Shown in pieces: positions 1,618 through 62,863 of a stretch of 64,000 bases of DNA. The notes under the pieces are model-generated. The model ran no database searches. It was not told the DNA's origin and was given only the letters and a program-made list of their open reading frames with translations. Both the position numbers and the translations under genes were made by a program. Source of the stretch: an uncultured bacterium (lineage in GTDB: Bacteria > Chlamydiota > Chlamydiia > Chlamydiales > CAZBXE01). The DNA is taken from the NCBI GenBank assembly GCA_964496125.1, contig CAZBXE010000002.1, positions 12,383 to 76,382 of the forward strand. Reading direction: 5' to 3'. Position 1 is the first letter of the stretch, and every line of letters starts with the position of its first letter.

Positions 1618-1669
1618 TATATTGTCAGAAAAAATAAAGACTTTACAAATGTTTTATTTATTTTGATTC

Positions 1670-1698
1670 TTGACATTGGGAGTTTAATTTAATATAAT
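1670..1698 (+). promoter_or_regulatory. Consensus sigma70-type promoter for the His-rich gene
   Basis: TTGACA (1670-1675), 17-nt spacer, TATAAT (1693-1698), in an AT-rich intergenic region about 40 nt upstream of the ATG at 1738. Confidence 0.55.
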
Positions 1699-1737
1699 AC
1701 ATTCATTTGTTATACTTAATATATATGGAGAAATAAA

Positions 1738-2346
1738 ATGACTGAATCTTTAACTCTTGCAGATGCCATCTTCGACCCTTCATCCACAACAGAAACAGGA
1801 CTTGTGGTGTCCGGAAGCACACACTCTTATTCAGCTTCTTTGAACCAAGTAGAAAAGCAATCTGCTGAGCTGCTCGCCCTCTGCCTCCAATTCATTGGAA
1901 AACAACCATCCAGAATAGAACTACTGGGCATCAAAAAAGAGTGGATCGAATTTGAAATCGAAGCTCTAAGAATGAAAGAAAAGCTTGAAAAAGAAGGAAC
2001 ATCAGAGCAAAAGGCCGCGTTCAATGCGCTCATCGACAAGACAAAGAACATTTTTTTCGAAATATTGCCAGCTGAGCCACAGCACAAGTCCCATTCCCAT
2101 GGACATTGCCATGGCAAAAAGAAAGGGGAACACAAGTACGATCACCATCATGGGCACCACGGACACCATCACGGGCACCACGGACACCATCACGGGTATC
2201 ACGGGCACCATCACGGGCATCACGGGCACCATCACGGGCATCACGGGCACCATCACGGGCACCACCACCCGCATAACGACCACGGCACCAGTTTTGGACC
2301 AAAAAAACAATATATATCAGATAAATTTAATTTTCTAAAAGTTTAA
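1738..2346 (+). CDS. Histidine-rich (HGHHHGH)n protein, putative metal-binding
   Basis: SD ggag before the ATG. The C-terminal third reads HSHGHCHGKKKGEHKYDHHHGHHGHHHGHHGHHHGYHGHHHGHHGHHHGHHGHHHGHHHPHNDHG. The N-terminal 120 aa are ordinary helical sequence. Confidence 0.8.
   Translation: MTESLTLADAIFDPSSTTETGLVVSGSTHSYSASLNQVEKQSAELLALCLQFIGKQPSRIELLGIKKEWIEFEIEALRMKEKLEKEGTSEQKAAFNALIDKTKNIFFEILPAEPQHKSHSHGHCHGKKKGEHKYDHHHGHHGHHHGHHGHHHGYHGHHHGHHGHHHGHHGHHHGHHHPHNDHGTSFGPKKQYISDKFNFLKV
2158..2262 (+). repeat. Five tandem copies of a 21-bp in-frame repeat (cacggRcaccatcacgggYaY)
   Basis: Units at 2158-2178, 2179-2199, 2200-2220, 2221-2241 and 2242-2262. Units 3 and 4 are identical. Each encodes HGHHHG[HY]. 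Confidence 0.9.
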
Positions 2347-2360
2347 TTGAAGGAGTATAA

Positions 2361-2804
2361 ATGGCTATTTGCATGACAGAATCACAGTTTGAAGATTTAC
2401 AAAGCGCGCTCGGAAAAACTGTAACTATCCAGGAACCTGAAGTCGCTTCTGCGACACAGGCAGTAGAAGCTCTAGGAAACGAGTTTCTTGCCCAGATGCA
2501 AACTTTTACAAACGCACCTAAAAAAACAAAGAGCCGGGAAGAGACTGTAATGGCTCACAAATTCACTCTCTTCAAAGAAGCCGCAGCTCACAGAAAAGCA
2601 GAAATTCAAGAGGAAATCAAGTCTGAGCTCAGAAACTGGAATGAACAGCAGTACGACCTCGTTATTGTAACAGTTGCAGAGCAATACGCTAAGCTATTTA
2701 GCGCAGCCTACCCTCCGGTAAAGCATGACGTAAGATCGAATGCCTTCAAAAACGAAAAAGCTGCTAAGCAGCGTTTCGATGAAATCAAAGCTTTAAGAAC
2801 CTAA
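2361..2804 (+). CDS. Hypothetical protein (147 aa, helical, charged)
   Basis: SD aaggag 5 nt before the ATG; followed by a strong terminator. No family recognised. Confidence 0.6.
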   Translation: MAICMTESQFEDLQSALGKTVTIQEPEVASATQAVEALGNEFLAQMQTFTNAPKKTKSREETVMAHKFTLFKEAAAHRKAEIQEEIKSELRNWNEQQYDLVIVTVAEQYAKLFSAAYPPVKHDVRSNAFKNEKAAKQRFDEIKALRT

Positions 2805-2840
2805 GTTCATGATTGCCTTCCTAATTGGGTGTTAGGAGGT

Positions 2841-2876
2841 CCCCTATCTCTTTTTTTAAAGAGATAGGGGTTTTTT
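2841..2876 (+). terminator. Rho-independent terminator
   Basis: Stem cccctatctcttt / aaagagatagggg with loop tttt, followed by a T6 run. Confidence 0.8.
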
Positions 2877-2877
2877 A

Positions 2878-2906
2878 TTGATTTAAATTAAACAATTTAT
2901 TATAAT
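2878..2906 (+). promoter_or_regulatory. Near-consensus sigma70-type promoter
   Basis: TTGATT (2878-2883), 17-nt spacer, TATAAT (2901-2906), directly after the terminator and about 40 nt before the ATG at 2946. Confidence 0.5.
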
Positions 2907-2945
2907 TTAGTTCATTAAATTAAAATTACTGAGAAGGAGATTTAA

Positions 2946-3449
2946 ATGTATCTAACCTACCCGCCCCCCCAAGAGAAGGCCCCTGTCGTCCAAGAGTGGA
3001 GAGTTCCCCAGGGTGAAAAAGGCGTAAACACCCTGCTCTCCGATCTAGAAAAAACAGGTAGTCAGATGGTTGTCACCTTTGAGCATATCGTATCAAAAGC
3101 CGCACTGAATCAAGACATCGTCTCTTTAGCATACACATTCTCTCAAGGGAAACAAGCAGTTAAGGATGCAATTGCAGAGCAGGAGAAAAACTGTGGCAAA
3201 AATGCAAACTGCGGTAGAACCTCTGCTTCCCAGACCCAATCTCTTCACGAGTCGGTCAAAAAAGTTCGAAAACAGATCGAAAAACTAGGAGAAAAACACA
3301 TTTTTAAAACAGGGGAAAGATTTATGAGCGGTTTCAAAGCCCACACCCCCCTAAACATTGCCGGTGCCATCCGTCTCAAAGCAGACGCTAAGCTTCTCGA
3401 GCCGAAGAGAGACCTCTACTACAAGCTTCTCCAAGTCACCTCAATCTGA
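2946..3449 (+). CDS. Hypothetical protein (167 aa)
   Basis: SD gaaggag upstream of the ATG. No signal peptide and no recognisable domain. Confidence 0.55.
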   Translation: MYLTYPPPQEKAPVVQEWRVPQGEKGVNTLLSDLEKTGSQMVVTFEHIVSKAALNQDIVSLAYTFSQGKQAVKDAIAEQEKNCGKNANCGRTSASQTQSLHESVKKVRKQIEKLGEKHIFKTGERFMSGFKAHTPLNIAGAIRLKADAKLLEPKRDLYYKLLQVTSI

Positions 3450-3596
3450 GAAAAGGCTCTTAATCCAATCTTAACAATTGGAGCGTAAAATCCTGCCGTT
3501 TTGATTAATAATCAGTCTCTTATAAAAGAGTTTTTGTCTGATAACATTCGAAACAACAAGCCAGACAACCCAGGGTTTTGAAGAGAGCTAAAACAC

Positions 3597-4280
3597 ATGC
3601 ATGAACTCGGCAATACTTTTGGCCCCTTCCCTTGGTGGGCAAGCAAAGAGATCCAGGAAGAGGTCAAGGAGAAAATCTATCCCCCAAAAAAACAGGATGT
3701 AGGCCCTCATAAGCAAGACACCCTCCCCAAAGCCGTCGTAGGCGCCGGAAGAGGCCTTCCTCCCCTGCTTGCCAAATTAGAAGCTGAATTTACCAAGATT
3801 CCAGGAGCCAAAAAGAAAAGAAGCAAGGACGAGCTTGTTGTATATGCTTTGCCCCAGAAAAGTCATACCGTGGAAGCCCTCCTTTCTTACGACAAAGACA
3901 CAAAATCTTGCTTTCTTAAGCTTTCCTTCCAAGGATACAACCACAACGAAAGGTGGGAAAAGATCGCAGAAGCCACCCTTCTTCTACACTCTTCTACTAT
4001 TTTGCCCCTTTCAGAAAAGCCAAAGCACCTGGGTGACCCCTTCGAATGGAATAAGAATCAAAGCGTTACCTTCACCTGGCGAGTCAAGACACTAAAGAAG
4101 ATCAAGGAGGCAATCGCCCTATTGCAGTTTTTCCAAGAGCTATCAGGATGGAAGTCCACGGAGCGCGCCTATGATTTTTACAAACTTATGGTAAAGCTTG
4201 GAATACAAGATAAAGTGCAAGATTACTTCGATACAAAGCAAGAGCCGCTCGCCCCATTTCTTCGCTGGCCCTTTGATTAA
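3597..4280 (+). CDS. Hypothetical protein (227 aa)
   Basis: Long ORF in the same orientation as its neighbours. No recognisable motif. Confidence 0.55.
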   Translation: MHELGNTFGPFPWWASKEIQEEVKEKIYPPKKQDVGPHKQDTLPKAVVGAGRGLPPLLAKLEAEFTKIPGAKKKRSKDELVVYALPQKSHTVEALLSYDKDTKSCFLKLSFQGYNHNERWEKIAEATLLLHSSTILPLSEKPKHLGDPFEWNKNQSVTFTWRVKTLKKIKEAIALLQFFQELSGWKSTERAYDFYKLMVKLGIQDKVQDYFDTKQEPLAPFLRWPFD

Positions 4281-4307
4281 ATTAAACGTTCCTTTACCCT
4301 TAAAACT

Positions 4308-4925
4308 ATGTCACCTTGGGTTTTGTTTTTTCTTGGAATGCTTTGTCTTGCTATAGCAAGCAGGTTCGATCTTGCTGTCTCCTCCTTTTTCTACCCCTTC
4401 AGCCACAACAATGCATTTGCCGAGTGGCTCTATCAATATGGCAATTATCCAGCCATGGCCGTTGTTATTGTTTTAACCATTTGGGGATGGCTGCGACCCA
4501 GTGGGCGAAGAGCTATAAGTGTCTTTGTTCTTACCTACATCATCGTGAGCGGCTTTCTCATCAATGGGATTTTTAAAGAATGCTGGGGCCGCCCCCGTCC
4601 TGTGCAAACAGAAGAATTTGGTGGTCCTTACCCGTTCCGGCAATTTTATGAGCCCGAATTCATCTGTAGGCAGCCCAAAAAATCGTTTTCTAGCGGGCAC
4701 GCGGCCTCTGGTTTTATTTTTTTAGCCCTTGTCCCCATCGGAATAAGAACGAGAAAAAAGTTTCTTGTTTGGCTCGGGCTTTTTCTCGGTCTTACTTTAG
4801 GAGGCCTGCTTGGTTGGGCACGTCTTCTGCAAGGTGGACACTATCTGACCGACATCGTAGCTTCGGGGCTCATGGTTCTCCTTACAGCCTCTATGCTATC
4901 CAGGCAGCTCTCTTCTGAAGCTTGA
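4308..4925 (+). CDS. PAP2-family membrane phosphatase
   Basis: All three PAP2 motifs are present: KECWGRPRP (Kx6RP), SFSSGH (PSGH) and RLLQGGHYLTD (Rx5Hx3D). Multiple TM segments. Confidence 0.8.
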   Translation: MSPWVLFFLGMLCLAIASRFDLAVSSFFYPFSHNNAFAEWLYQYGNYPAMAVVIVLTIWGWLRPSGRRAISVFVLTYIIVSGFLINGIFKECWGRPRPVQTEEFGGPYPFRQFYEPEFICRQPKKSFSSGHAASGFIFLALVPIGIRTRKKFLVWLGLFLGLTLGGLLGWARLLQGGHYLTDIVASGLMVLLTASMLSRQLSSEA

Positions 4926-4962: not shown

Positions 4963-6198
4963 ATGTATTTTAGATCTAGAACAAAGGCAATTATTCTAAT
5001 GTCAAACCACATTACAGCTATTAGACCACGACAAAGCCACGGGCCTACACCTGCTTATTACCGTTATATCAAGAGGAAATATACCATATGGCCTAAAGAG
5101 ATCCCAGGAGCAGAACAAAAAATGGGAGAAAAGAGAGCCCTCTGCACGATCATCAACGACTTTCTTGCCAACCGAGATCCCGCCGAACTTGTGATGAACA
5201 AAAAAATTACTCAAAAAAAGCGCACCCTCTATCTACACTTGGACAAGACAGAACAAAAGATGCTGCTTGTCATATACGGGGAAGAACCAAGTTGCTTTGG
5301 TACAAATCTTAAAAGTTATTTCCCTGCAAAAACACTAGAGATAAAAATAGCTCGTAAAAAAGATGCTCATTTCTACGACTCTGTCCTCATGCGGATTAAT
5401 GATATAAAAAATGGCCTTGATTTTTCACTGAGGTGTTTTTTAGAGGGAAATGCCACATTAATTTCCCTCCACAAGAAATGTGAGAGAGAGCAGCCACAAG
5501 ACGTCTATCTTGCCCCTCCTTTTGACCAACTAGATGTCAACCTCTTTACGCAAAAGCGCTTACTAGGCTCAATGCAAACCTTTTTTTGCGATCCTAGAAG
5601 CAATGGGCTTCACATTCCTTTGTATCAGAAAGTCGTTTCTACTGTTAAATGGGTAAACGATCAGGGAATTGTCCATCGTGATATAAAATTTGACAACTTT
5701 CTTATTCAGCAAAACCCTGATCAAACCTTCACACCACTCCTTACAGACTTTGATTTATCTGGCAACTTTGGAACAGAAAAAAGCGGTTGGTCCAAGGAAG
5801 AGTATCCCCTATGGGATCCATGCTGCAGCTATCGTGGGGTAAAAGCCCTAACCGATGTGTATAGCATTACCTGTATGTACCTTCTGACCTGGACGCAAGT
5901 AACCACATCAGAACTTTCCAGTAAACGTGATCTTATCATGGCATACACAGAAAACCAGAAACGATTTCATTTGCAAGGCACTACCTGGAATGGAGTAACA
6001 TTTGAAAACCTTACTCAGAGAAGTCGGTTGCGAGTACGTCTTTTTGTTCACGTTTGCCAAGAAAGCGCAAAGCTAGCCTTTCACTTCCACAAGATCAAGG
6101 GCCCTATCAGTCACGAGGAAGCAAAATCCGCTCTTATCCAACTCAACACCCCTGATTTCTGGCCAGCAATTAACACCCTTGTCGGTAAATCTTCATAA
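4963..6198 (+). CDS. Eukaryotic-like protein kinase-fold protein (atypical)
   Basis: Catalytic loop HRDIKFDN (5674-5697) and DFD in place of DFG (5746-5754). Candidate beta3 Lys in LEIKIARKK. The glycine-rich loop is degenerate. Confidence 0.65.
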   Translation: MYFRSRTKAIILMSNHITAIRPRQSHGPTPAYYRYIKRKYTIWPKEIPGAEQKMGEKRALCTIINDFLANRDPAELVMNKKITQKKRTLYLHLDKTEQKMLLVIYGEEPSCFGTNLKSYFPAKTLEIKIARKKDAHFYDSVLMRINDIKNGLDFSLRCFLEGNATLISLHKKCEREQPQDVYLAPPFDQLDVNLFTQKRLLGSMQTFFCDPRSNGLHIPLYQKVVSTVKWVNDQGIVHRDIKFDNFLIQQNPDQTFTPLLTDFDLSGNFGTEKSGWSKEEYPLWDPCCSYRGVKALTDVYSITCMYLLTWTQVTTSELSSKRDLIMAYTENQKRFHLQGTTWNGVTFENLTQRSRLRVRLFVHVCQESAKLAFHFHKIKGPISHEEAKSALIQLNTPDFWPAINTLVGKSS

Positions 6199-6201
6199 CC
6201 G

Positions 6202-6972
6202 CTAAGAAATAGAACTAAGCCATAAACGGAAGTTCAAAAGAAGAGCCATAAAGACATACCCAAAAGCACACAGAAAAAATGCTATTGGGAAGTAGTAGAG
6301 AAACCCATAAAAAAGAAATACAGCTGATACAACAAATGCAAACACACGCTTAAAGGATGAAACGCGAATCTCAAGTGTTTTAAGGCTTGGAAAATGTAGG
6401 TGGCTAATCATGAGATAACCAATCGAAAAGAACATCACCGTTAAAAAAAGGATCTGAGCCGTTTTACCAAAGACCATAAAGTGAGCAAAATCCTCTGAAA
6501 GAACAAACACCGTAGAAGACAAGATGCAAGCTGCCGCTGCAGGAATGGGAAGGCCTAAAAAGAACGAGCCCCCCAGCTTATCCTCGTCCGTCATGACAGA
6601 AAACCGGACAAGCCGAAGTACACCACTTAATGCATAGACCATAGCAGAGCTAGTCAAGAGGAAAGAGAGCCATGTGCTTTCTGGAACGGGCAAGCTCTTT
6701 AAGGCTAAAGCAGCCGGCGCAACCCCAAAAGAGATCGAGTCAGCAAGCGAGTCAAAAAGTCCCCCAAAGGCGCTCTCTTGCTTCAAAGCTCTCGCAATAG
6801 CGCCATCAATGAGGTCGGCAAGAGCCGCCACAAGCAAAAGAGCGATTACAATCATGAGCAACGTATAACTCATCTCTCCCGGAGGCGTCATGTTGATCTT
6901 AAAGATGGCAAAAAGACCGCAAGTAAGTCCGAAAGCTGTGACGATATTTGGAAGTATAGGTACTTGTTTCAT
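6202..6972 (-). CDS. pssA: CDP-diacylglycerol--serine O-phosphatidyltransferase (CDP-alcohol phosphatidyltransferase family)
   Basis: Motif DGAIARALKQESAFGGLFDSLAD (DGx2ARx8Gx3Dx3D) in a polytopic membrane protein. The ORF is open to 7041, but the ATG at 6972 (MKQVPILPNIV...) avoids overlap with the divergent gene. Confidence 0.8.
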   Translation of the reverse strand: MKQVPILPNIVTAFGLTCGLFAIFKINMTPPGEMSYTLLMIVIALLLVAALADLIDGAIARALKQESAFGGLFDSLADSISFGVAPAALALKSLPVPESTWLSFLLTSSAMVYALSGVLRLVRFSVMTDEDKLGGSFFLGLPIPAAAACILSSTVFVLSEDFAHFMVFGKTAQILFLTVMFFSIGYLMISHLHFPSLKTLEIRVSSFKRVFAFVVSAVFLFYGFLYYFPIAFFLCAFGYVFMALLLNFRLWLSSIS

Positions 6973-7026
6973 ATGGGTTATAGCGTTATAGTACATGAAA
7001 GCAAACTTAAGGTGCAAGCTGGTAGC

Positions 7027-9990
7027 ATGAGCAAATTTCATAAAACGGGTTACGCCTACAAAGGCTTCGAGGTCAAAAAGGTAAGAAAATTAGAAGAGCT
7101 TGGGGCTTTTCTGATCGAGCTAATCCACTTAGAGACAGGGGCCGAAATCGTCCATATCGAGTGTGATGATCCTGAAAATGTGTTTTGTCTTTCCTTTCGT
7201 ACCTATCCTGAAAACTCCGGTGGCGTGGCACATATCTTAGAACACATCGTACTTTGCGGCTCTCAAAAATACCCGATCAAAGATCCTTTCTTCTCTATGC
7301 AAGGCAGAAGCCTCAACACCTACATGAACGCTCTCACAGGCTCTGACTTTACCTGCTACCCAGCAGCTTCCCAAATCCCTCAAGACTTTTATAACTTACT
7401 TGATGTCTACGTCGATGCCGTATTTCATCCAAAACTGGAAAGGTTAAGCTTTCTGCAAGAGGGGCACCGACTTGAGTTCCAAGATCCAAAGGACCCATCA
7501 ACTCCCCTTCAGTATAAAGGAATTGTATTTAACGAAATGAAAGGAAGCCTCACCTCCTCTTCAGCCAGACTCTCTGTAGCTGTGGAAGAGACCCTTTTTC
7601 CTGACCTAACCTATTGTTACAATTCTGGAGGAGACCCGAAGCAGATCCCGCAGCTGACCCACCACGAGCTGGTAGCGTTCCATAAAACTTTTTACCATCC
7701 GAGTCGATGTCTATACTTCTTCTACGGAAACATGCCCCTGAAAAGCCATCTTGATTATCTCAGTAAAAATGTCCTTAAAGGCGTAGAAAAAAAGAGAAAA
7801 ATCCCCCCCATCCCCAAACAACCCCGCTTCAACGCTCCAAAGGAAAAAACATTTTTCTATCCGATTGCAGCTACTGATGAGGTAAAAAACAAAACCATCA
7901 TCGCCCTTGCCTTCCTTACATGTAGCATCTTAGAGCAAGAAGACCTGCTTGCTCTCTTTGTGCTATTAAGTGTTCTTATGGACACAGACGCATCTGCTTT
8001 AAAAAAAGCCCTTTTGGAATCACATCTTTGCACACAAGCAAGCGTTCTTGTCGAAAGCGAAATCAGCGAAATCCCCATCGTCTTCACTATGAGGGGCTGT
8101 GAAGAGGAGTATGGAAGCAGGCTTGAAAAGCTGATCTTGGACACTCTAGCCAAGGTAGCTAAAGAAGGAATTGAAGAAGAAAGGATCGAAGATGCGATCT
8201 ATCAGCTGGAGTTTTACAGAAGTGAAATCACAGGCGATAGCTACCCCTTTGGTCTCATCCTTTACTTCCGCTCTTGCCTTGTCAAGCAGCATGGCGGTGA
8301 GGCAGAAGATGGTCTTGTCATCCACGAGCTATTTGGAAAACTAAGAAAACGGATCGAAGAAGACCCCAAAACATTTTCTAAGCTCATCGAAAAATACTTT
8401 TTGGAAAATCCCCATGTCGTGCGCGTTACAATGGCTCCCGATCCCACCTTGGAAAAAAAAGAGAATGAAGAGGAGAAAAAGATCCTTCAGCGGATTCAAG
8501 AAGGGCTTTCTGAAAAAGAGAAGAAGACAATTGTAAAGCAAGCACAAGAGTTACAGAGCTTCCAAAAAAAGCAAGAAGAGGAGAGTCTTGAGTGCTTGCC
8601 TATGATCGGGCTTACAGATATTCCTTTGAATCCGCAAGATTTCCCGCTTAAAAAGGAAAAACATGGAAGTCTAAACGTCTACCATCACGACTGTTTTACC
8701 AATGAAATCCTCTACGCCACTCTCTACTATGACCTTCCTGCTATCGAAGTAGAAGACATTCCCTATCTTCGCCTTTTCTCCTCGCTCACAGCCAATCTAG
8801 GGATGGGTGGGAAACCCTATGAAAAAGCATTAGAGATCATGCACGGAAATCTAGGTGGTATCGGGGCCTCCATTACCATGCACCATGAGGCAAACGACTT
8901 TAGAAAATTTACCCCAGCCTTCTGCCTCAAGGCTAAAGCGCTGCATAGAAAAGCCTATGCGCTTTTTCCCATCATGCAAGAGATTACGGGCTCTCAGGAT
9001 TTTACAGATAAAAAGCGCCTTAAAGAGCTGATTTTACAGTACCACACATCTCTTGCCCATGCGATCAATTCGAATGCACTACGCTATGCTTGGAACCTCT
9101 CAGCGGAAAATCTTAATGTTGCGTGTAAAATGAGCAGCCACCTGAATGGCCTGAGCTATTTTTACCTCTTAAAAGACCTTGCAGCTCATTTTGACGAGAG
9201 GGCTGATTTCCTGATCCATAAGCTTCAGGCATTTCAAAAGACACTCTTTTTACTTCCTAATGCAGATCTTGTTCTCTCCTGCAATCAGAAGATGTATGAC
9301 ATTTGCAAAGGACAAGACTTTTATGGATTTTCCCATCTACCGCAAAAACCCTGCACGAAGTGGAAGGGTGATTACCCTCTCATCACAGGCTCTCAGCAAG
9401 CTCGTATCATCGCCTCCCCTGTTGCCTTTATTGCTCAGGCAATGAACGCCATTTCTTATACACACCCTGATAGTCCCTCTCTGCTTCTTGCCCCTTCGAT
9501 TATGGAGAATAACATTCTCCACAAACTCATCCGCGAAGTCGGAGGAGCCTATGGAGCAAGCTCAGGTTTTCATCCGATCAACGGTCAATTTTATTTTTAC
9601 TCCTACCGCGACCCTAACATCCTATCAACATTGCAAGCTTTTGAAAAAGCGATCGAAACACTTGCTGCAGGCGATTTTTCAGAAGATAACCTCCGAGAGG
9701 CCAAGCTAGAAGTGATTCAGAACCTAGACACCCCAGTATCGCCAGGCAGCCGCGGTGACATGAGCTATGGGCGTTTGCGCAGCCATCTTACGCTTGCCAT
9801 GAGAAAACGCTTTCGAGAAAACATTCTTTCTTCGACCAAAGAACAAGTTAAAAACGCTGTGCAAAACCACATCTTGAAAGCAAGGGAAGGTTCTTTTCCA
9901 GCTGTGTTTGCAGGCAAAGAGCTGATCGAGCGAGAGAATGAAAAGCTAAAGACAAGCGGGCTTGCTCCCTTCCATGCCACCTCCATCTAA
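7027..9990 (+). CDS. M16C (PreP-like) zinc metallopeptidase
   Basis: Inverted zinc motif HILEH (HxxEH). About 987 aa, typical of presequence-protease-like M16C enzymes. Start taken at the ATG at 7027 (MSKFHKTGYAYKGF...), not the ORF-track start at 6778. Confidence 0.85.
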   Translation: MSKFHKTGYAYKGFEVKKVRKLEELGAFLIELIHLETGAEIVHIECDDPENVFCLSFRTYPENSGGVAHILEHIVLCGSQKYPIKDPFFSMQGRSLNTYMNALTGSDFTCYPAASQIPQDFYNLLDVYVDAVFHPKLERLSFLQEGHRLEFQDPKDPSTPLQYKGIVFNEMKGSLTSSSARLSVAVEETLFPDLTYCYNSGGDPKQIPQLTHHELVAFHKTFYHPSRCLYFFYGNMPLKSHLDYLSKNVLKGVEKKRKIPPIPKQPRFNAPKEKTFFYPIAATDEVKNKTIIALAFLTCSILEQEDLLALFVLLSVLMDTDASALKKALLESHLCTQASVLVESEISEIPIVFTMRGCEEEYGSRLEKLILDTLAKVAKEGIEEERIEDAIYQLEFYRSEITGDSYPFGLILYFRSCLVKQHGGEAEDGLVIHELFGKLRKRIEEDPKTFSKLIEKYFLENPHVVRVTMAPDPTLEKKENEEEKKILQRIQEGLSEKEKKTIVKQAQELQSFQKKQEEESLECLPMIGLTDIPLNPQDFPLKKEKHGSLNVYHHDCFTNEILYATLYYDLPAIEVEDIPYLRLFSSLTANLGMGGKPYEKALEIMHGNLGGIGASITMHHEANDFRKFTPAFCLKAKALHRKAYALFPIMQEITGSQDFTDKKRLKELILQYHTSLAHAINSNALRYAWNLSAENLNVACKMSSHLNGLSYFYLLKDLAAHFDERADFLIHKLQAFQKTLFLLPNADLVLSCNQKMYDICKGQDFYGFSHLPQKPCTKWKGDYPLITGSQQARIIASPVAFIAQAMNAISYTHPDSPSLLLAPSIMENNILHKLIREVGGAYGASSGFHPINGQFYFYSYRDPNILSTLQAFEKAIETLAAGDFSEDNLREAKLEVIQNLDTPVSPGSRGDMSYGRLRSHLTLAMRKRFRENILSSTKEQVKNAVQNHILKAREGSFPAVFAGKELIERENEKLKTSGLAPFHATSI

Positions 9991-16334: not shown

Positions 16335-17672
16335 GTGAGTATTCTTATACTCTCGACCAATAGCAAGAGCCAAGATACGTATTGGAAGCGTCATCTGCAC
16401 TCTGGGTCCGAGGTGCACATTATCCACGAAGAATGGAAAGGGGGTGCCGGCAATTGGCTAGGCACCCTTTATGCTTTTGCGGAGGTGCAAAAAAAGCGAG
16501 ATCTTTTGCGAGCCCTCCGAGAGGGCACTTCTGTCATCATCTACCACACTGCTGGCAAAGGGACAAGAATGTATCCCTTAACAGCGAGCGAAGGAGGAAA
16601 TAAGTCAGCCGTCAGACTTACTGACAAGTGCACTCTGCTTGAAGCAGTCATCCGCCAAACCATGGCCCTAGAAAGTTCCCAAAAAGGGAGGTTGTCTGTT
16701 TTCTTAGGAGACCAAATCTTCTTACCCTCAAAGCCTATCGCTACACCTTCTCATCACGCTGAAATTTTCACTAAAAAAATCGACTTCCCTACAAAAGAGA
16801 CCTGGCAAAAAGGCCACTTTGAGCAATATGGTCTGTTTGCCATAGACTCTGTAGGAAGGGCTCGGGAGATCAATAAGACAACGTACGAAAAGTTTGATGC
16901 TTACAGCAACAATAAAACGTTCGACTCTAGCCGGGGACTTGGTATAAGCCTTGGCTCCTTTACTCTCTCCTACGAAGCACTGTGTCTTGCCTTAGAAGTT
17001 TTTTCAAAAGAGCTAGCAGAAAAAAAAGGGCAAATGGATGTTGAGCCTTCCGTCTGGTTAGCTGCCTCGTTTGAAGAGACTCCTTACGTGGAGATGATGC
17101 AACAAAGCGGCCTTTTCCGAGGTGAGGAAAAAAAACACTATGCAAGGATGAAGCGCTATTTTGACATGTTGCCGGGGAAAAAAGAGAACTTTCTCGGCAT
17201 GCTAGATATAGGACAAGATGCCTACTGGTGGGACTATGGAAATATTGAGTCGTACTACCAAAACCTCCTTAAACTTCTTAGTGATAGCGAAGAGGGAAAA
17301 GCCATGCGCGAATTCTTCCACCTCAAAAAGCAAGACGGCTCTGTCATCAGTAACTCAGAAATCGGCTCGGGGAGAGTAAGAAATTCTATTCTTTTTGGGG
17401 TAAAGGCAAAATCTCTAGATGTGGAAAATGCGGTCGTGATTAATGCAGAACTACCCTCCCTTGAAGGGAAAAACTTTCTTCTCTACAATGTCAAAGAAAA
17501 AAAGCCGCTCGTGATGAAAGAAAAGTCCGTGAGGGCCGATGCCCTGATCCAAGAGACACATATGCCGATCAAGACAAACCTTGGACGCGATAGCAAAAAC
17601 GATTGGGAGGTGAAGCTCCCAGGCAACACTTTTACATATAAGGAAATTTTTAAACTTCTCTCTTCCCCTTAA
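16335..17672 (+). CDS. Putative sugar-phosphate nucleotidyltransferase-like protein
   Basis: GTG start 3 nt after the htrA stop. N-terminal signature HTAGKGTRMYPLT (GxGTRxxPxT). The remainder is unrecognised. Confidence 0.55.
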   Translation: MSILILSTNSKSQDTYWKRHLHSGSEVHIIHEEWKGGAGNWLGTLYAFAEVQKKRDLLRALREGTSVIIYHTAGKGTRMYPLTASEGGNKSAVRLTDKCTLLEAVIRQTMALESSQKGRLSVFLGDQIFLPSKPIATPSHHAEIFTKKIDFPTKETWQKGHFEQYGLFAIDSVGRAREINKTTYEKFDAYSNNKTFDSSRGLGISLGSFTLSYEALCLALEVFSKELAEKKGQMDVEPSVWLAASFEETPYVEMMQQSGLFRGEEKKHYARMKRYFDMLPGKKENFLGMLDIGQDAYWWDYGNIESYYQNLLKLLSDSEEGKAMREFFHLKKQDGSVISNSEIGSGRVRNSILFGVKAKSLDVENAVVINAELPSLEGKNFLLYNVKEKKPLVMKEKSVRADALIQETHMPIKTNLGRDSKNDWEVKLPGNTFTYKEIFKLLSSP

Positions 17673-17682
17673 ACTCTTAAAC

Positions 17683-19776
17683 CTATTGCTCATCCAGATC
17701 TTGTTTTTTTGTTAACAGAAAACAGTTGGAGCCAGTAAAAATCTTATACTTGCTGAACTTGCCTTCTTTCTGCAGCTGTTCCAACATGCTATGGATCCCA
17801 GCATAAGTGCTTAGGCCTTCGGGAATGTTTATTATAGCTTCATTCTTTGGGCCATTTACAAATTGGAAAACATCCTTTTGAAATTCTGCAAGTAGGCCCT
17901 TGTCCCTTTCCGCTCTCAGCTCTTTTAATACTTCAGGATCAAAAGGTTTTGTCCTTGTAAAGCACACATAACACTGTGTACTTCCAGGTCGGCCAGGTAT
18001 TGGTTTGTCAAATTCAACAGTCACCGAAAAATCGTTTGGCATCGGATTTTTTGCGATGAAGGTGTCTATTATCTCGCCAGTCCCTGTGGCGGCATTTTTT
18101 AGAAGAAAAGCGCATTCCTTTGGGAAGTGCTGATTCATCCAAATCCGATAAGGACTATCTAGCCCTTTTGGGTCTTTCTTTTTGATCTCCTCTAACCGAT
18201 TTTCGTGGAATTGCAAGAACCCCTTTCCCAGCAATTCGTAATCTATCTTAGGACTCACACTTATTATCCAGTTAATATCTTCTTGTAGTGTACCCTTTCT
18301 TTCAACCCACCTCTCAAACCTTAACTCAAAGCCAATTGCATTGTACTTTTTCTTCAATATCTCGTCTGCATTAAACATGTCCTTCAATTTCTCTCTTACT
18401 GCTTCATTTTCTAAGGCAGTAAATAAAGGCGTGTGCATGCGTTGCTGGTACGACTCCTGCGACCCACCAGAAGGATATTGCCCAGCTTTCAAAGCCTTAA
18501 AAATCATTTCGACACTCTCCTCTTCGGCTTTTGTTAAGTTTCGAGGGGCCTGGGTTGGCTTTGGCTGCTTTACAGGAATCTCCGGCTGAACACCAAGAGA
18601 CCTCATCATATCCTGCTGATTGGCGGTTTGCATGGACTCTGGACCTTTCTGCTCCACCACTTGTAGATTCAATCCCATACTACCATCATCGAGAGTGCAA
18701 TTCGATATCTTAAGACCCGTTTTTTTCGTTTTCTTCCACAATTCTAAGAACACTGTTTGCGTCGTAGTCTCACTAAACAAAGAATGCAAATGGGTTCCTT
18801 CTGTAAGTGTGACAGATGGATTTTCTCCTAGACTCTTGAAAACCAATAGGATTGCGCTTTGAAACTTTTCCATCTGCTCCTGTTTATCGTGTATTGGTTC
18901 CCGATTGGTTATAGGAGATGAAGATTTTGGCATGCTAGTCTCTGTAAATAACCTCGCCACATCGCTAAGAGCTTCAAAATACAGCTGCTCATTCTCGTTC
19001 GCCTTACTTTCTGTTGAACTAGGCACCTCATCGGGAGAATCAGGGAATTTGCTTAAAGAAACAAGCGTGGAAGCCTGACCAGCAGGATTTATATGACCTC
19101 CTGATGAGGCGGGAGCTACGGCTGGATCCGTTTTTGTGACGCGCCTTAAATTGGTGCGAACCTGGACTATTTTCTCTTCAGCTTTAGACTCGTCTTTATC
19201 TTGATGTTCTTTAGGGGGACTCTTTTCAGGTCCACGTGATAATAATTCGTCTCCAATAGGTTTGTCGTTGTTAGATGGATCACTACGTGGCGGCTTCATC
19301 GTAGGTATCGTTGATGTTGGGTTTTCCGGAGAGCTAGACCCAGGACTTGGAAAATGGATAAGCAGATCTACTATCTTTTTTTGTTTTGCAGAAAGATCTT
19401 CCTTTTTCATCTTTCCAAATTGCATTGTTACAGATACGCTTTTCCCCTTTTCATTTGTGCCAGAAACCTTAACGCCCACAATCCTATTTGTAAACCACGT
19501 CTTTTTTAGTTTTACCTGAGCGTTCTCAGAAAAGCTAGAATGTTCCAGCAAAGGAAGAAGCTCAGTCCTTATATCATTTAAAGCTTGTGCCATAGAGCCG
19601 TATCTGTCAATAACCTTAGAATCTAGGGTAACTTGATATAGGTGTCCGCTAATTTCTATGATCCCTTTGCGCCCCTTTCTCCCATTTACATCCACTTCTT
19701 TGCTTGTGTTAGACACCCCTAACCACGAAATCTGCGCGTTATCGCCCGAACCTGTGAGTAATGTTATGGAGTTCAT
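17683..19776 (-). CDS. Large orphan protein (697 aa) with a disordered S/P/E/K-rich centre
   Basis: Uninterrupted 2.1-kb ORF with no signal peptide or TM segment. The central region of about 200 aa is low complexity. By eye, more AT-rich than its neighbours. Confidence 0.6.
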   Translation of the reverse strand: MNSITLLTGSGDNAQISWLGVSNTSKEVDVNGRKGRKGIIEISGHLYQVTLDSKVIDRYGSMAQALNDIRTELLPLLEHSSFSENAQVKLKKTWFTNRIVGVKVSGTNEKGKSVSVTMQFGKMKKEDLSAKQKKIVDLLIHFPSPGSSSPENPTSTIPTMKPPRSDPSNNDKPIGDELLSRGPEKSPPKEHQDKDESKAEEKIVQVRTNLRRVTKTDPAVAPASSGGHINPAGQASTLVSLSKFPDSPDEVPSSTESKANENEQLYFEALSDVARLFTETSMPKSSSPITNREPIHDKQEQMEKFQSAILLVFKSLGENPSVTLTEGTHLHSLFSETTTQTVFLELWKKTKKTGLKISNCTLDDGSMGLNLQVVEQKGPESMQTANQQDMMRSLGVQPEIPVKQPKPTQAPRNLTKAEEESVEMIFKALKAGQYPSGGSQESYQQRMHTPLFTALENEAVREKLKDMFNADEILKKKYNAIGFELRFERWVERKGTLQEDINWIISVSPKIDYELLGKGFLQFHENRLEEIKKKDPKGLDSPYRIWMNQHFPKECAFLLKNAATGTGEIIDTFIAKNPMPNDFSVTVEFDKPIPGRPGSTQCYVCFTRTKPFDPEVLKELRAERDKGLLAEFQKDVFQFVNGPKNEAIINIPEGLSTYAGIHSMLEQLQKEGKFSKYKIFTGSNCFLLTKKQDLDEQ

Positions 19777-31620: not shown

Positions 31621-32889
31621 TTGGAGCCCACCACCTTGACAAAAGAGAGAATTCATCCCACGAAGGGAGAATCGATTGACGAAAACGCAATCGATTCTGA
31701 TGCCCTAAACGTAGTAGACACCTTACAGAAAGCAGGCTATACAGCCTATATTGTGGGAGGCTGTGTACGAGACCTACTCCTCCACCAGAAACCAAAAGAC
31801 TTCGACATCTCCACAAACGCCATGCCTCACGAAATTAAAAAACTCTTCAAGAGAAGCTGCCTTCTCATTGGGCGCAGGTTTCGTCTTGCCCATCTTCGCT
31901 TTGGAAAAAAGGTCATCGAAGTATCAACCTTTCGATCAGGGGGCAATGAAGGGGAGCTCATCATCCGCGATAACGAGTGGGGAACCGAGAAAGAAGATGT
32001 CCTTAGGCGCGACTTTACCATCAACGGTCTGCTCTACGATCCCTCCACAAAAGAAATTATTGATTATGTAGGCGGTGTAAACGACATCCGAAAGAAGCTG
32101 CTGACCACCATCGGCGACCCGATCACTAGGTTTAGGCAAGACCCCGTGCGGATGATCCGCCTGATCAAGTTCCAAGCAAGACTTGGCTTTACTATTGAAC
32201 CAAAAACCCTTCATGCCCTCAAAAAATGTGGCGATGAAATCATCAAGAGCGCACCTGCTAGGCTCTTAGAAGAAGTGCTACGTATGCTTGAGTCAGGCTC
32301 TTCCTCTCCCTTTTTCCGCCTGATGGTCGAACATGAACTTCTCGAACACCTCTTTCCCGCCTTTGATCGTTTCCTACGAGATAAGCATGGAGAGGAAATC
32401 TTTAAGTATCTGACCGCTGCCGATGCTCTTACAAAAGAAAGCGAAGCGGGGTATCTAGATAGAGCGTGCCTTGTGGCCTGTCTTTTCTTCCCTATATTAG
32501 AACAAGAGCTTGATATTCAATATATTCAGCATGATACTATACCTCATACGGGCGAGATACAGGACCTAGCTGTTGCCCTAATCGACGGTGTCGAGAGCAC
32601 CTCCTTTTTTCAGTTCCCAAAAAAGCTTCGCGCTTCTCTCATCTTTATCTTATCCACCCAGTTTCGACTGATTCCTATGAAAGGACAACAGAAGTTAAGA
32701 ACGCGCTTTATGGGGCATGAGGAGTTTGCCTCTGCGCTTCGTTTCCTTGAGATAAGGGCTCTGGCGGATGAGACTATAAAACCCCACTATGAAGAGTGGC
32801 AAAAAGCCTATGAATCGCAAGCGCCGTCCTCAACCGAAGAGAGGCGCCCACCTTCCCACCGCCGGCGCAGGGGACGCCGCCCGGCCTAG
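31621..32889 (+). CDS. pcnB: Poly(A) polymerase I / tRNA nucleotidyltransferase family
   Basis: YIVGGCVRDLLL...KDFDIST and RRDFTINGLLY motifs; basic tail RRPPSHRRRRGRRPA typical of PcnB. Non-ATG (TTG) start. Confidence 0.8.
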   Translation: MEPTTLTKERIHPTKGESIDENAIDSDALNVVDTLQKAGYTAYIVGGCVRDLLLHQKPKDFDISTNAMPHEIKKLFKRSCLLIGRRFRLAHLRFGKKVIEVSTFRSGGNEGELIIRDNEWGTEKEDVLRRDFTINGLLYDPSTKEIIDYVGGVNDIRKKLLTTIGDPITRFRQDPVRMIRLIKFQARLGFTIEPKTLHALKKCGDEIIKSAPARLLEEVLRMLESGSSSPFFRLMVEHELLEHLFPAFDRFLRDKHGEEIFKYLTAADALTKESEAGYLDRACLVACLFFPILEQELDIQYIQHDTIPHTGEIQDLAVALIDGVESTSFFQFPKKLRASLIFILSTQFRLIPMKGQQKLRTRFMGHEEFASALRFLEIRALADETIKPHYEEWQKAYESQAPSSTEERRPPSHRRRRGRRPA

Positions 32890-35800
32890 TAATAGCCAGG
32901 GTTTGTATAGAGAATGGGCGCAGCCCCACGGTAAATCTTATCAAGGATGGTATACATCTCTTGGTCTTGTACGGATAACATTTTCAAATTTTCTCTCCCC
33001 ACGACAAGATCTCCCTTGTATTCCTTAAATCGATTATTGCTATTGGCCTCAAAGTAGAAATTACTCATTTCCGCAAAGTACTCGGCAGGATCAACGGCCG
33101 CATAGGCATCTTCAGAGAACTTCCATCCCTCCAATTCTTCTCCATATTCCCGCATTTTTTGTTTGTAAAGAACCTGGACTCTTGCCCTTACGTTTTTGGG
33201 AACAGTAGTATAATCAATCAAATGAGCAAGCTCATGTGAGGAGGTGGTCCCAAGAGCCTCTCCCTCACGGACTGACTCAACCTCCGTCCACCCCCAAAGT
33301 CGCTCCTCTCCTATAAACACGTTTTTTGATTCTCTGGAATGGGCATAGAGTCCATATGTGTCGGTTCCCGCGCTGGCGCAGAGGATTTGATGCTTCTGAC
33401 ATTCATCTGTGAAATGTGTCTCACTTGGTACGATAATCACCTTCCCTTTAGACTCAAGAAGGGTACTACTGAGCTCACTATTATTTTCAATCATTTTTGA
33501 AAACACGCGAACAAGTTCAGCATGAGCCTGAGTTCTTCTGTAGGGAGGTAAATCAGGATTCTGGATCATCATAACGGCTGTAAAAAGAGCTAGCTCTTTG
33601 CTGTTTAAGACTTTTGCCATCTTCTCCCGAAATTCGGGACTGTCTTTTGCTTGAAGGGCCTCAATGACTTGAGGGTGGCTAAAAATCCTTCGTTCTAACA
33701 CTTCCACCATGTGCTTTTCTAACTTCTCCTCCGAAAGCAAGTAAGACCACCTTGAATCGGCATAGCGAACTAAATCGGGCAGAATGGTGTTCATCTGTAG
33801 CATGCTTTCATCAAGCTGGATATCGATTCCCAATTCCTCTAGTTTTTTCCAAGGTGCTTCATCATGAAAGGCAATATCTTTCCATTCACCCGTCCATGCC
33901 CACTGCTGCAGCTTATCCAGAATAAACTGTGTTTTCTCATCTCTTTTCACCCACTCACCAACATAGGCTCCAGTAATCTCTAGGAGTTCTGGTTTTGTAA
34001 AACTTTCAACCCAGCCCCTTACTTGCTCGTAATAGGCTGTCTCAAAAAACACATCGAGATCTCCCTCTAAACTGGCACCCTCTTTTGACTCGTAGAATGA
34101 AACAGCTGACAAGAAATGAGAGATTTGTTTTTGGATGCTTTCTGGATGACTTGAAGAAAATTGGCAAGCGCCCCCCACACTTTGTTCAAAAGCTTTGATT
34201 CGCTCCTCTGTAGGTGCATGCCTCAGAATAATTGCCATCAGCTGCAAGGCAGGATAGTTGACAAAAAGGCTTTCTTCTACAGCCGTCTCAGCAAGTCTAA
34301 AGGCATTTTCGTAATCAGGTGTCTCTTGGGAAAGAGCTTCTGTAGCCAACGCAAGGCAAGAGAGAGGAAACATTCTTGTCTTTTCACCCCCCCCCATTTG
34401 GGCCTCTGCCCATAAAAAAGAGCGAGACTCAGCAGATATCTGACTTGCATACTGTCCTATACTTGCTGGCATGCCAGATTCCATAAGGCTATTTGCTGCG
34501 CTCTCGATCTGCGTCTGCCCAGTCAATGGTTCTGAAACGTGAACCGGAGAGGAAACGACTTCTCTCTCCACAAGCTGTTCTTGCTGAGGAGCCGCAAATG
34601 GTCCTGGTAGCTTGGCGTTTAAGTAATCAGTTGATACCTGTCTAATGCCTTTGCCATACACAGGCTCTGTGGCGTTTCTTACCTTGTCTAAAATCGCTCG
34701 CGTGTCTGGGTAGCGTTTGGTATAGGCTTCAAACTCTTCTGGGGTCATGTTCCGAAGGGCCATTTGCTTATCTTCTAGTGTAACCTCAATGAATTGCACT
34801 TGCCTTTCATGTTGCGCTTCTAAGGGCTTTCTAAGCGCTTCTTGCCTTGCCTGTGCTTGAATTTTTAAGTCTCTTGATGACTTCGTAGTGACAAACTCCA
34901 GATCAGGTGTGATCACTTTTTGCACAAGCTGCCCTGCTTGAAGAAGCTGAAAGAAGGTTCTCCACCTTCCCTTTTCAGCCTCACTCATCCCTTCCAAGCT
35001 TTTCTTCATCGCTAGCGCTCTTTCTTGTCTCCGCGACTTAGTTTTTTCTTCTTTCTGTGGCTCCGTTTCAGGCAAGACCTCGTAAACAGCTTGCAAATCC
35101 GCTTGCTCTGTCGGAATCCTTCCCATCTTTTGACGAGCGGTCTTAAGCACATCGCGCAAAGTTTTTAGCTCAGAAGCAACCTCCCTCTCCCCCTCCTCTG
35201 TATATTTACGAAAGAACCAACTTGAGACATAAGAAAGCACTCCTTCTCTTGGTAAAGAGGAAAATCTCGGGTCTTCGAGCAGACCCTCCATCTTTTTTAT
35301 CTCCTTCTCGAGCAGGTTGTTAAATTCCTTACCCCTCGCCTCAAGATAGCTGATATTTCGTTTGCACCTTTCTATCTCCCTCTTCTCTCCTTTGGCTTCA
35401 GCCAGGCTAAGATTCAGTTTTACATCTGTTATTTCCATCTCCAAACTAGTGATAAACTCAAGACAAAACTCTTCCACAAGAAGTGAGCGTTGATGAAGAT
35501 CCTGGATGACCTCCCCTAAAACAAATCCATTAGCTACTGACACCACCTGGGGAATGCTCTCCAAAAAACCTTCTAAAGGCTGACTTGCAAAAGAAATATG
35601 CCCCATTTCGAGATCTTCTCTTTGACCTGTCAGCAAGACACTTGCGGGCTCAAAATCATCTTGAATGCTTTCCAATCTAACAAGTACATCAAACTCTGCT
35701 CTCTTTCTCTGCTGCAGCTTCTTCCCTTCGGAACCAGGTCCCTCGCTCTCAATGGCACGGGCTCTTTCTAAGCATCTTGAAAAGACTCTTACCACTGTTT

Positions 35801-46402: not shown

Positions 46403-47394
46403 CCTTTCAAGACAACTTGAAAAAGAAAATGGAGGAGGGGGTCATCCCCAAGAAAGCCCTCTCTACTCTTGACCAGTTCTATAAGAGCTTTCAAAAGGCC
46501 ATGCAAGAAGATGGCCTCGACAGCAGGCAGCTAGACAAAAGTCTGGCACTTCTTCTGCAATTTATTGAGCAAGAGGTCAAACACCCCTTCCCTTTTCCTT
46601 CTTTTCACAAAAGGGTAGAGGAGGGTTTTGACTATTACCAATTTGGCCTAGACTTCATCCGTCCCCTAGTCCGGTTTGAAAGCTCCTCTGTTCAAGGAAT
46701 ATCCAATATCGAAAAAATGATGGGACAACTGAAAAACAAAGAAAATGTCATCTTGTTTGCCAACCACCAGATCGAGCCTGATCCTCACGTCATCTGTCTC
46801 ATGCTAGAGAAGAACTTCCCTGAATTTGCTAAAGACATAATCTTTGTTGCAGGGGATAGAGTCATTACAGACCTTCTTACCATTCCTTTTAGCATGGGGA
46901 TGAACCTTGTCTGCATCCACTCGAAAAGGCATATTAACTTCCCCCCCGAACTCAAAGAAAAAAAGCTCTTGCACAACCAGCTTGCGATGCGGGGTCTTGG
47001 AGAAATTTTAGCATCTGGAGGAAAATGCCTCTATGTCGCAGCCAGTGGAGGTAGGGACAGAAAAGATGCAAACGGTGCGCTAAAAGTAAGCCCTTTCGAT
47101 CCGGGCAGCATCGAAATCTTCCAGCTCCTTGCAAAAAAAGCAAAGACAAAAACACACTTCTATCCTCTTGCGCTTTCCACCTACAACCTCTTTCCTCCCC
47201 CTCAAAAAATTGAAACTAAAATCGGGGAAATGCGACTTGTCAATCGGAGTGCTGTACATCTTGCCTTTGGTGAAGAGATTGACATGGAAGCCTTGGATGC
47301 AGATGATAAAACCTTGGACAAACATAAAAAAAGGGAAAACCGTGCGCATGCTATTTGGGACCTTGTACAAACTCTCTATCAAGGTATTGCCTAA
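46399..47394 (+). CDS. Glycerol-3-phosphate acyltransferase, soluble plant-plastid (ATS1) type
   Basis: FANHQIEPDPHVICLML matches the plant GPAT NHQSEADP (HxxxxD) block. About 330 aa and soluble. Overlaps the rng stop by 4 nt. Confidence 0.78.
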   Translation: MTFQDNLKKKMEEGVIPKKALSTLDQFYKSFQKAMQEDGLDSRQLDKSLALLLQFIEQEVKHPFPFPSFHKRVEEGFDYYQFGLDFIRPLVRFESSSVQGISNIEKMMGQLKNKENVILFANHQIEPDPHVICLMLEKNFPEFAKDIIFVAGDRVITDLLTIPFSMGMNLVCIHSKRHINFPPELKEKKLLHNQLAMRGLGEILASGGKCLYVAASGGRDRKDANGALKVSPFDPGSIEIFQLLAKKAKTKTHFYPLALSTYNLFPPPQKIETKIGEMRLVNRSAVHLAFGEEIDMEALDADDKTLDKHKKRENRAHAIWDLVQTLYQGIA

Positions 47395-62779: not shown

Positions 62780-62863
62780 GCCGACGTGGCGGAACTGGCA
62801 GACGCGGCAGACTCAAAATCTGCTCTTGGCGACAAGGTGTCGGTTCGAGTCCGACCGTCGGCA
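62780..62863 (+). tRNA. tRNA-Leu (anticodon CAA), type II with long variable arm; CCA not encoded
   Basis: Acceptor GCCGACG/CGTCGGC plus discriminator A. Anticodon stem GCAGA/TCTGC with loop CTCAAAA. Variable arm CTTGGCGACAAG. T arm GTCGG-TTCGAGT-CCGAC. Confidence 0.92.

Follow-up and report, generated by a model that had tools for sequence, protein, structure and literature searches.

A histidine-rich repeat protein encoded in a member of the Chlamydiota as a candidate divalent-metal buffer of Hpn-like composition

Why should a bacterium that lives inside host cells carry, behind a perfect consensus promoter, a gene for a protein whose tail consists largely of histidine and glycine? The question is raised by a 64-kb stretch of DNA assigned to an uncultured member of the Chlamydiota (contig CAZBXE010000002.1 of assembly GCA_964496125.1, positions 12,383 to 76,382; the whole stretch is called the window below, and all positions refer to it), in which the gene, here named ORF1 (open reading frame 1), occupies positions 1738-2346 of the forward strand. 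Chlamydiota are obligate intracellular bacteria that must take every metal ion from a restricting host, and histidine-rich proteins are a recurrent, independently invented bacterial means of metal handling. The reading that we favour, with somewhat better than even confidence and by analogy of composition, is that ORF1 may encode an abundant protein that binds and buffers divalent metals with high capacity and moderate affinity, analogous but not homologous to the Hpn protein of Helicobacter.

ORF1 is among the listed open reading frames of the window and encodes 202 amino acids (22.9 kDa), 19% of which are histidine, the highest proportion of all window open reading frames of at least 100 amino acids (median 2%, runner-up 6.9%). 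Nearly all of its 39 histidines lie in residues 119-182 (2092-2283, + strand), a tract with the sequence HSHGHCHGKKKGEHKYDHHHGHHGHHHGHHGHHHGYHGHHHGHHGHHHGHHGHHHGHHHPHNDH, in which 37 of 64 residues are histidine and 14 are glycine, with one cysteine, in the motif HGHCHG, and one tyrosine within the repeats; the tract is predicted to be disordered. A preliminary description of this DNA had the protein of 202 residues end in a His/Gly tract of about 70 residues. The protein length and the tract itself are real, but the tract covers 64 residues and is followed by 20 ordinary residues and a TAA stop codon (2284-2346, + strand; GTSFGPKKQYISDKFNFLKV), so that it is subterminal rather than terminal.

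Part of the tract is encoded by a 21-bp tandem array at 2143-2265 (+ strand), for which Tandem Repeats Finder reports 5.9 copies with 94% matches and no insertions or deletions. Read in codon register, the units specify HHHGHHG twice, HHHGYHG, HHHGHHG twice more and finally HHHGHHH, the units at 2206-2226 and 2227-2247 being identical; the five units, two of them identical, that had been placed at 2158-2262 represent the same array in another register. The units differ from one another by five substitutions at four variable positions, four of them synonymous and one replacing histidine by tyrosine, and the longest exact self-match at an offset of 21 bp extends over 43 bp from position 2198. 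Since the units are 94% identical and share this 43-bp self-match, the expansion of the tail appears to be recent. Tandem Repeats Finder further detects a degenerate 12-bp repeat (HSHG/HCHG) at 2092-2114, ahead of the 21-bp array and older than it, and the tail thus seems to have been extended at least twice.

Long, near-perfect, head-to-tail units able to misalign, as present here, are the repeat feature of contingency loci, whose copy number differs between strains or inside one population. It is therefore credible that slippage or unequal recombination could act on the array, seven codons at a time, and change the length of the tail with the frame intact, and the earlier suggestion to this effect is plausible in view of the in-frame unit and the 43-bp exact self-match. 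The only independent sequence of the locus, a Logan short-read contig of 1097 bp (L001, from SRR11845633), is identical to the window over the following gene, ORF2, and the start of ORF3, and begins inside the histidine repeat (its positions 1-40 against 2219-2262 of the window) at a branching k-mer. Logan assemblies are built with a k-mer size of 31, and the array contains two copies of the 30-mer with which L001 starts, each followed by a different base, which would explain why the contig breaks there; hence it carries no copy number. When this locus is assembled from short reads, the gene may be collapsed or split.

The remainder of the protein was examined in an AlphaFold model computed from the single sequence. 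Residues 1-31 (1738-1830, + strand) form a predicted disordered N-terminus (predicted local distance difference test score, pLDDT, below 50) that contains neither lysine nor arginine and no hydrophobic signal peptide, and the first 30 residues are 40% serine and threonine, the highest value among 46 window genes. Residues 33-109 (1834-2064, + strand) are predicted to fold into a three-helix bundle with helices at 33-50, 59-86 and 89-109; the means of pLDDT over blocks of ten residues are 66-88 between residues 31 and 110 and at most 54 from residue 115 onward, where long segments fall below 50. Over 19 residues, Kyte-Doolittle hydropathy peaks at 0.9 in the whole protein; neither a signal peptide nor a transmembrane segment was found by hydropathy, and ORF1 is predicted from these features not to be exported by Sec or Tat.

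The N-terminal 118 residues gave no match at E ≤ 0.001 in an exhaustive HMMER search of 1.84 billion representative proteins, ORF1 had no match in Pfam and NCBIfam (E ≤ 0.1) or in PHROGs, and a metagenome scan with the N-terminal domain returned no further copy. Searches with the full-length protein were swamped by histidine-containing words and yielded nothing but two unrelated PB1-domain proteins. Sequence matches of the N-terminal domain in the PDB were weak hits to designed helical repeats (best E = 0.0035) that we judged spurious. A Foldseek comparison of the model with the PDB returned generic antiparallel three-helix bundles (GAT, syntaxin Habc, BAG and designed proteins), none at E ≤ 0.001, and no function could be assigned from the fold. 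A plasmid or phage origin found no match either, by tblastn against PLSDB and in PHROGs, respectively.

That ORF1 is a genuine lineage-specific gene of this member of the Chlamydiota is indicated by several lines of evidence. In a codon log-odds model trained on 26 housekeeping genes of the window, its N-terminal 118 codons score 0.246 in the reading frame of ORF1 but -0.39 and -0.27 in the two shifted ones, as compared with a mean of 0.287 and a minimum of 0.092 for the reference genes, whose own shifted frames reach at most -0.152. Codon usage of the small island to which ORF1 belongs (see below) lies within the range of the housekeeping genes, and its GC content is 0.43 compared with 0.45 for the window; as both match the genome, a foreign origin by composition is ruled out. 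Together with the helical core predicted from a single sequence, these normal coding statistics and genome-like composition lead us to take ORF1 as a real gene.

Its expression signals are unusually complete. An exact match to the sigma-70/sigma-66-type consensus promoter, TTGACA-17-TATAAT, is located at 1670-1698 (+ strand) and is the sole site in the 64 kb with at most one mismatch; 0.01 exact sites are expected per window and one of 100 shuffled sequences contained one, in agreement with the rarity that had been claimed for it. The 30 bp abutting the -35 hexamer (1640-1669, + strand) are 83% A+T and possibly resemble an UP element. The -10 hexamer ends 39 nt ahead of the ATG at 1738, and from a presumed transcription start a short 5′ leader is predicted at 1705-1737 (+ strand), with the Shine-Dalgarno sequence GGAG at 1727-1730, 7 nt before the ATG. 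RNA spanning 1705-1770 folds with -1.9 kcal/mol as against -6.3 kcal/mol for shuffled sequences (z = +1.94), and an energy at least as favourable was reached by 199 of 200 shuffles, so that the ribosome site should be left open by this weak folding. An Rfam scan revealed no riboswitch or other known RNA near ORF1, its sole match being a tRNA-Leu at 62780.

Downstream, ORF2 (2361-2804, + strand, 147 amino acids) starts after a gap of only 14 nt, which contains its own Shine-Dalgarno sequence AAGGAG (2350-2355, + strand; 3 nt past the ORF1 stop and 5 nt ahead of the ORF2 ATG). A strong intrinsic terminator follows at 2841-2880 (+ strand), composed of a hairpin at 2841-2870 with a 13-bp stem, six G-C pairs and a 4-nt loop, and then TTTTTTATTG. 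This short gap with its AAGGAG and the terminator 3′ of ORF2 define a layout of promoter, ORF1, ORF2 and terminator, and the two genes are probably co-transcribed, with ORF1 as the first gene of a two-gene operon.

From these elements a mechanism can be proposed. The consensus promoter, the short unstructured leader and the good Shine-Dalgarno sequence would lead to strong and probably constitutive expression of a bicistronic ORF1-ORF2 transcript that would end at the hairpin. The three-helix bundle might serve oligomerisation or contact with a partner, possibly the product of ORF2, and would carry a flexible tail of 64 residues that has apparently grown recently by in-frame duplication of the 21-bp unit. 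The imidazole clusters of this tail could be a high-capacity, moderate-affinity chelator of Ni(II), Zn(II), Cu(II) and Co(II), and with roughly one ion bound per three to four histidines a chain might hold about ten ions. On this view ORF1 would buffer, store or soak up metal ions in the manner of Hpn in Helicobacter, which binds several Ni(II) ions per chain and protects against nickel overload, but would have arisen independently of it. The same chelation chemistry underlies Hpn, Hpn-2 and the tail of HspA. With 37 histidines among 64 residues of a disordered segment, in a protein whose signals point to expression, ORF1 exhibits the combination (more than 40% histidine over tens of residues, disorder, expression) by which the broad class of histidine-rich metal-binding proteins is defined by composition, and by its sequence it appears to fit this broad class only. 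Expression level, metal binding, metal identity and site of action are all features that we infer, whereas the sequence features, the coding signature, the operon layout, the island context and the lack of relatives are what the analysis shows. Histidine-rich proteins of such composition from Helicobacter bind and sequester nickel, as Hpn does (PMC4671568).

Several findings weigh against this interpretation. ORF1 is known from a single genome, and no conservation backs a function. The promoter region shows only weak A+T-rich inverted repeats and no recognisable operator for a metal-responsive regulator. Pfam annotation, which covered most window open reading frames of at least 150 amino acids (46 proteins), identified no urease, hydrogenase, Ni/Co/Zn transporter or NikR/Zur-type regulator in the 64 kb; the absence of a visible urease or hydrogenase context, remarked on in the preliminary description, was thereby borne out, nickel transport included. 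Within the repeat region the +1 frame (Thr/Ile/Gly) scores higher in the codon model (0.448) than the histidine frame (0.078). As codon statistics inside such a repeat are uninformative, the histidine frame rests here on its continuity with the coding flanks. Finally, an exact look-up of ORF1, including five alternative starts, found no record in a collection of 15 billion proteins.

Two observations belong beside these. The five other frames over the repeat (1985-2338 on the + strand; 2002-2310 on the - strand) also hold listed open reading frames, of 56-117 amino acids and with repeats such as TITGTTD and VMVPVMP, which extend over the entire repeat or the greater part of it and are by-products of it. 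The same collection of 15 billion proteins does hold ORF2 (in a version of 143 amino acids), ORF3, ORF4 and the PAP2 gene product, all from one 248-kb NCBI contig. As ORF1 is missing while its neighbours are on record, the public record either lacks this coding sequence or contains a different version, or the collection dropped ORF1; the histidine-rich gene may thus stand in that record without annotation or in another form.

ORF1 to ORF4 constitute a lineage-specific island of 2.7 kb (1618-4307) between rmuC (373-1617, - strand; Pfam E = 2.8e-101), which lies upstream of ORF1 and is divergent from it, and a PAP2/LpxF-like lipid-phosphatase gene at the 3′ flank (4308-4925, + strand). The closest relatives of rmuC, with one genome considered per GTDB species, come from Parachlamydiaceae, Waddliaceae and other chlamydial metagenome-assembled genomes (MAGs) with at most 64% identity, which places the DNA in a species of the Chlamydiota outside those representatives and bears out the earlier view that it derives from an intracellular bacterium. 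In six related chlamydial MAGs (L005, L006, L008, L010, L014 and L023) the divergent rmuC and PAP2 genes are separated by only 0.1-0.5 kb, and in two further loci (L011 and L047) the slot next to rmuC is occupied instead by a transposase, a hypothetical gene or one that resembles inositol monophosphatase. The rmuC/PAP2 junction appears as a variable slot in Chlamydiota. No histidine-rich open reading frame was found near rmuC in the chlamydial loci (80 related loci checked).

ORF2 scores 0.314 in the codon model, has no family match, and a homology search returned only itself; its model is all-helical with low confidence (mean pLDDT 52) and its isoelectric point is 6.3. That ORF1 and ORF2 are paralogues was ruled out (E = 65). 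ORF3 (167 amino acids, log-odds 0.31, with sub-threshold family matches only) and ORF4 (227 amino acids, log-odds 0.26, no family match) are located between 2946 and 4280 and appear to form a second small transcription unit (2946-4280) behind a promoter-like site, TTGATT-17-TATAAT (2878-2906, + strand; 10 of 12 positions matching), that lies after the ORF1-ORF2 terminator and before ORF3. ORF2 and ORF4 had no match in Pfam, NCBIfam or PHROGs, and a metagenome scan with ORF2 to ORF4 concatenated gave no relatives, ORF3 and ORF4 having had no protein homology search of their own.

Next to the island, an open reading frame of 411 amino acids (4963-6198, + strand) matches Pfam Pkinase (E = 8.5e-8) over residues 221-323, that is, the catalytic-loop half only, with the motif HRDIKFDN; it encodes a divergent eukaryotic-like Ser/Thr kinase, possibly an effector. 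Two large M16-family (insulinase/PreP-like) zinc peptidases are encoded at 6778-9990 and 47129-50230 (both + strand), and together with peptidases of families M19, M20, M48 and M50 they make up an unusually dense metallopeptidase set for 64 kb. Besides all these peptidases, the remaining housekeeping complement of the window includes HtrA, sucCD, ftsY, glmSM, pcnB, lpxB, plsX, RNase E/G, proS, prfB and ispD. Three open reading frames without a Pfam match at E ≤ 1e-6, of 1207 (32886-36509, - strand), 697 (17683-19776, - strand) and 445 amino acids (16335-17672, + strand), probably encode further lineage-specific chlamydial proteins.

How well do other explanations of ORF1 survive against this background? 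The best of them, which we nevertheless consider rather unlikely, is that ORF1 is a substrate of type III secretion and acts in the host cell or the inclusion lumen, with the same tail chemistry directed at another place and target: the tail might strip or hold host Zn, Ni or Cu, inhibit host metalloenzymes by chelation, or turn into a polycation at acid pH and so attach to membranes or polyanions. A disordered, Ser/Thr-rich N-terminus without basic residues is typical of chlamydial type III signals, and residues 1-31, predicted disordered, 40% serine and threonine, devoid of basic residues and without a Sec signal, have this appearance, but Ser/Thr richness is a weak heuristic. Chlamydial effector loci commonly look like this one, a lineage-specific island whose genes have no detectable relatives and which lies close to a eukaryotic-like Ser/Thr kinase gene. 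Against the scenario, Pfam annotation of the window revealed no gene for type III secretion. Class I type III chaperones have an alpha/beta fold, unlike the all-helical fold predicted at low confidence for ORF2, and an adjacent small acidic alpha/beta chaperone is common but not obligatory for chlamydial type III substrates. The computed net charge of the His/Gly tract rises from +2 at pH 7.4 to +29 at pH 5.5, in line with an acid-switched polycation. Precedents for secretion and for the chemistry exist in that tandem-repeat proteins of Ehrlichia, likewise obligate intracellular, are reported to be secreted and to interact with host targets (PMC3417381), and in that poly-His/poly-Gly venom peptides have been proposed to inhibit metalloproteinases by metal chelation (PMC9472272).

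An elaborated version of this scenario, which we regard as improbable and offer as speculation, would make ORF1 a "protein metal sponge", or a polycation switched by acid, that an environmental chlamydia produces in bulk and injects by type III secretion into its protist host in order to capture transition metals, disarm metalloenzymes or buffer vacuolar pH, with ORF2 as its partner and with a tail whose capacity is adjusted as seven-residue units are gained or lost. We know of no described chlamydial effector of such a class.

Likewise unlikely, in our judgement, is the view of ORF1 as a gene that is young and evolves fast, with a His/Gly tract that arose by runaway repeat expansion, is neutral or nearly so and serves no specific role. 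Such a gene might well be confined to one genome, with no relative among the 1.84 billion representative proteins, and the near identity of the units, which implies very recent expansion, and the variability of the rmuC-PAP2 slot among relatives are in line with this. However, an exact promoter, a good Shine-Dalgarno sequence and an open leader are not what one expects of a functionless gene; the N-terminal domain has an ordinary coding signature; and four of the five differences between units are synonymous. Moreover, abundant synthesis of a protein with 39 histidines would burden the cell and upset its metal pools, which makes persistence of the gene without benefit improbable.

A strict nickel store of the Hpn type, serving urease or [NiFe] hydrogenase, is very unlikely: composition is what speaks for it, whereas no nickel enzyme, accessory protein or nickel transporter was found in the 64 kb, the sequence bears no similarity to Hpn and, to our knowledge, Chlamydiae do not use urease or [NiFe] hydrogenase. 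Hardly plausible at all is a role of the run of 37 histidine codons as a translational gauge of histidine (His-tRNA) supply, tuning the output of ORF1 and ORF2 under host histidine restriction, for although the codons are extremely dense, ORF2 starts 14 nt past the ORF1 stop and the tryptophan content of chlamydial proteins has been proposed to shape translation under starvation (PMC3937554), ORF2 has its own strong AAGGAG, no terminator-like hairpin was noticed between the genes (no fold prediction or search for alternative structures covered the gap), and ORF1 has a predicted folded domain, unlike leader peptides.

As a buffer of divalent metals, our preferred reading, ORF1 is a new case of a familiar protein kind rather than a new kind. 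Literature searches revealed no described histidine-rich protein in Chlamydiota and no paper that mentions SRR11845633, and we know of no described example of the histidine-rich metal-binding class in Chlamydiae. If ORF1 is abundant and binds metal, it would represent a lineage-specific adaptation in metal economy, and if it is secreted, a new type of effector. It also provides a clean example of a young gene in which a domain without relatives is joined to a freshly expanded repeat, with optimal expression signals already present. The locus is of some interest both to the study of metal biology in chlamydiae and to that of how young genes arise, the practical reach being limited to one uncultured genome with no link found to a wider system.

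Which known systems, then, does ORF1 resemble? The more distant parallels concern single properties. The poly-His/poly-Gly peptides of viper venom share with ORF1 the His/Gly low complexity and the proposed metal chelation, but they are eukaryotic, secreted and built of separate His and Gly blocks, so that the likeness is compositional only. The tandem-repeat proteins of obligate intracellular bacteria such as Ehrlichia (PMC3417381) and chlamydial effectors without known relatives are like ORF1 lineage-specific, with an in-frame tandem repeat, a disordered N-terminus and a variable genomic slot; the Ehrlichia repeats, in contrast, are acidic and Ser-rich whereas that of ORF1 is His/Gly, there is no homology, and secretion of ORF1 is putative.

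Closer in layout are HspA (a GroES), SlyD, HypB, UreE, CooJ and the mycobacterial GroEL1, in which a folded domain carries a disordered histidine-rich tail for the storage or transfer of Ni, Zn or Cu. The folded domain of ORF1, unlike theirs, falls outside the families of these tailed metallochaperones in Pfam and NCBIfam: no Cpn10/GroES domain (E ≤ 0.1) and no FKBP, CobW/HypB/UreG GTPase (including COG0523) or UreE domain was found, and the predicted fold is all-helical. A BLASTP alignment with Hpn gave E = 60 and nothing meaningful. The label "Hpn/HspA-type" attached to ORF1 in the preliminary description does not hold beyond a compositional analogy, in view of this lack of similarity to Hpn and of GroES, FKBP, HypB/UreG and UreE domains.

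The most instructive comparison remains that with Hpn and Hpn-2 of gastric Helicobacter (PMC4671568). Hpn has 60 residues and is histidine-rich almost throughout, whereas ORF1 begins with a 118-residue part free of such enrichment that contains a predicted three-helix bundle; the regular HHHGHHG heptad array of the ORF1 tail is unlike Hpn; and Hpn works together with urease, hydrogenase and NikR, none of which was seen in the 64 kb around ORF1. Yet the Helicobacter proteins and ORF1 are alike in being small, cytoplasmic as judged by the lack of a signal peptide, very rich in histidine and restricted to their lineage, and in having their histidines clustered in short repeats with an occasional cysteine. 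Abundance is known for Hpn and is suggested for ORF1 by its signals for strong expression, and the mode of action that the two are likely to share is multivalent chelation of divalent metals.

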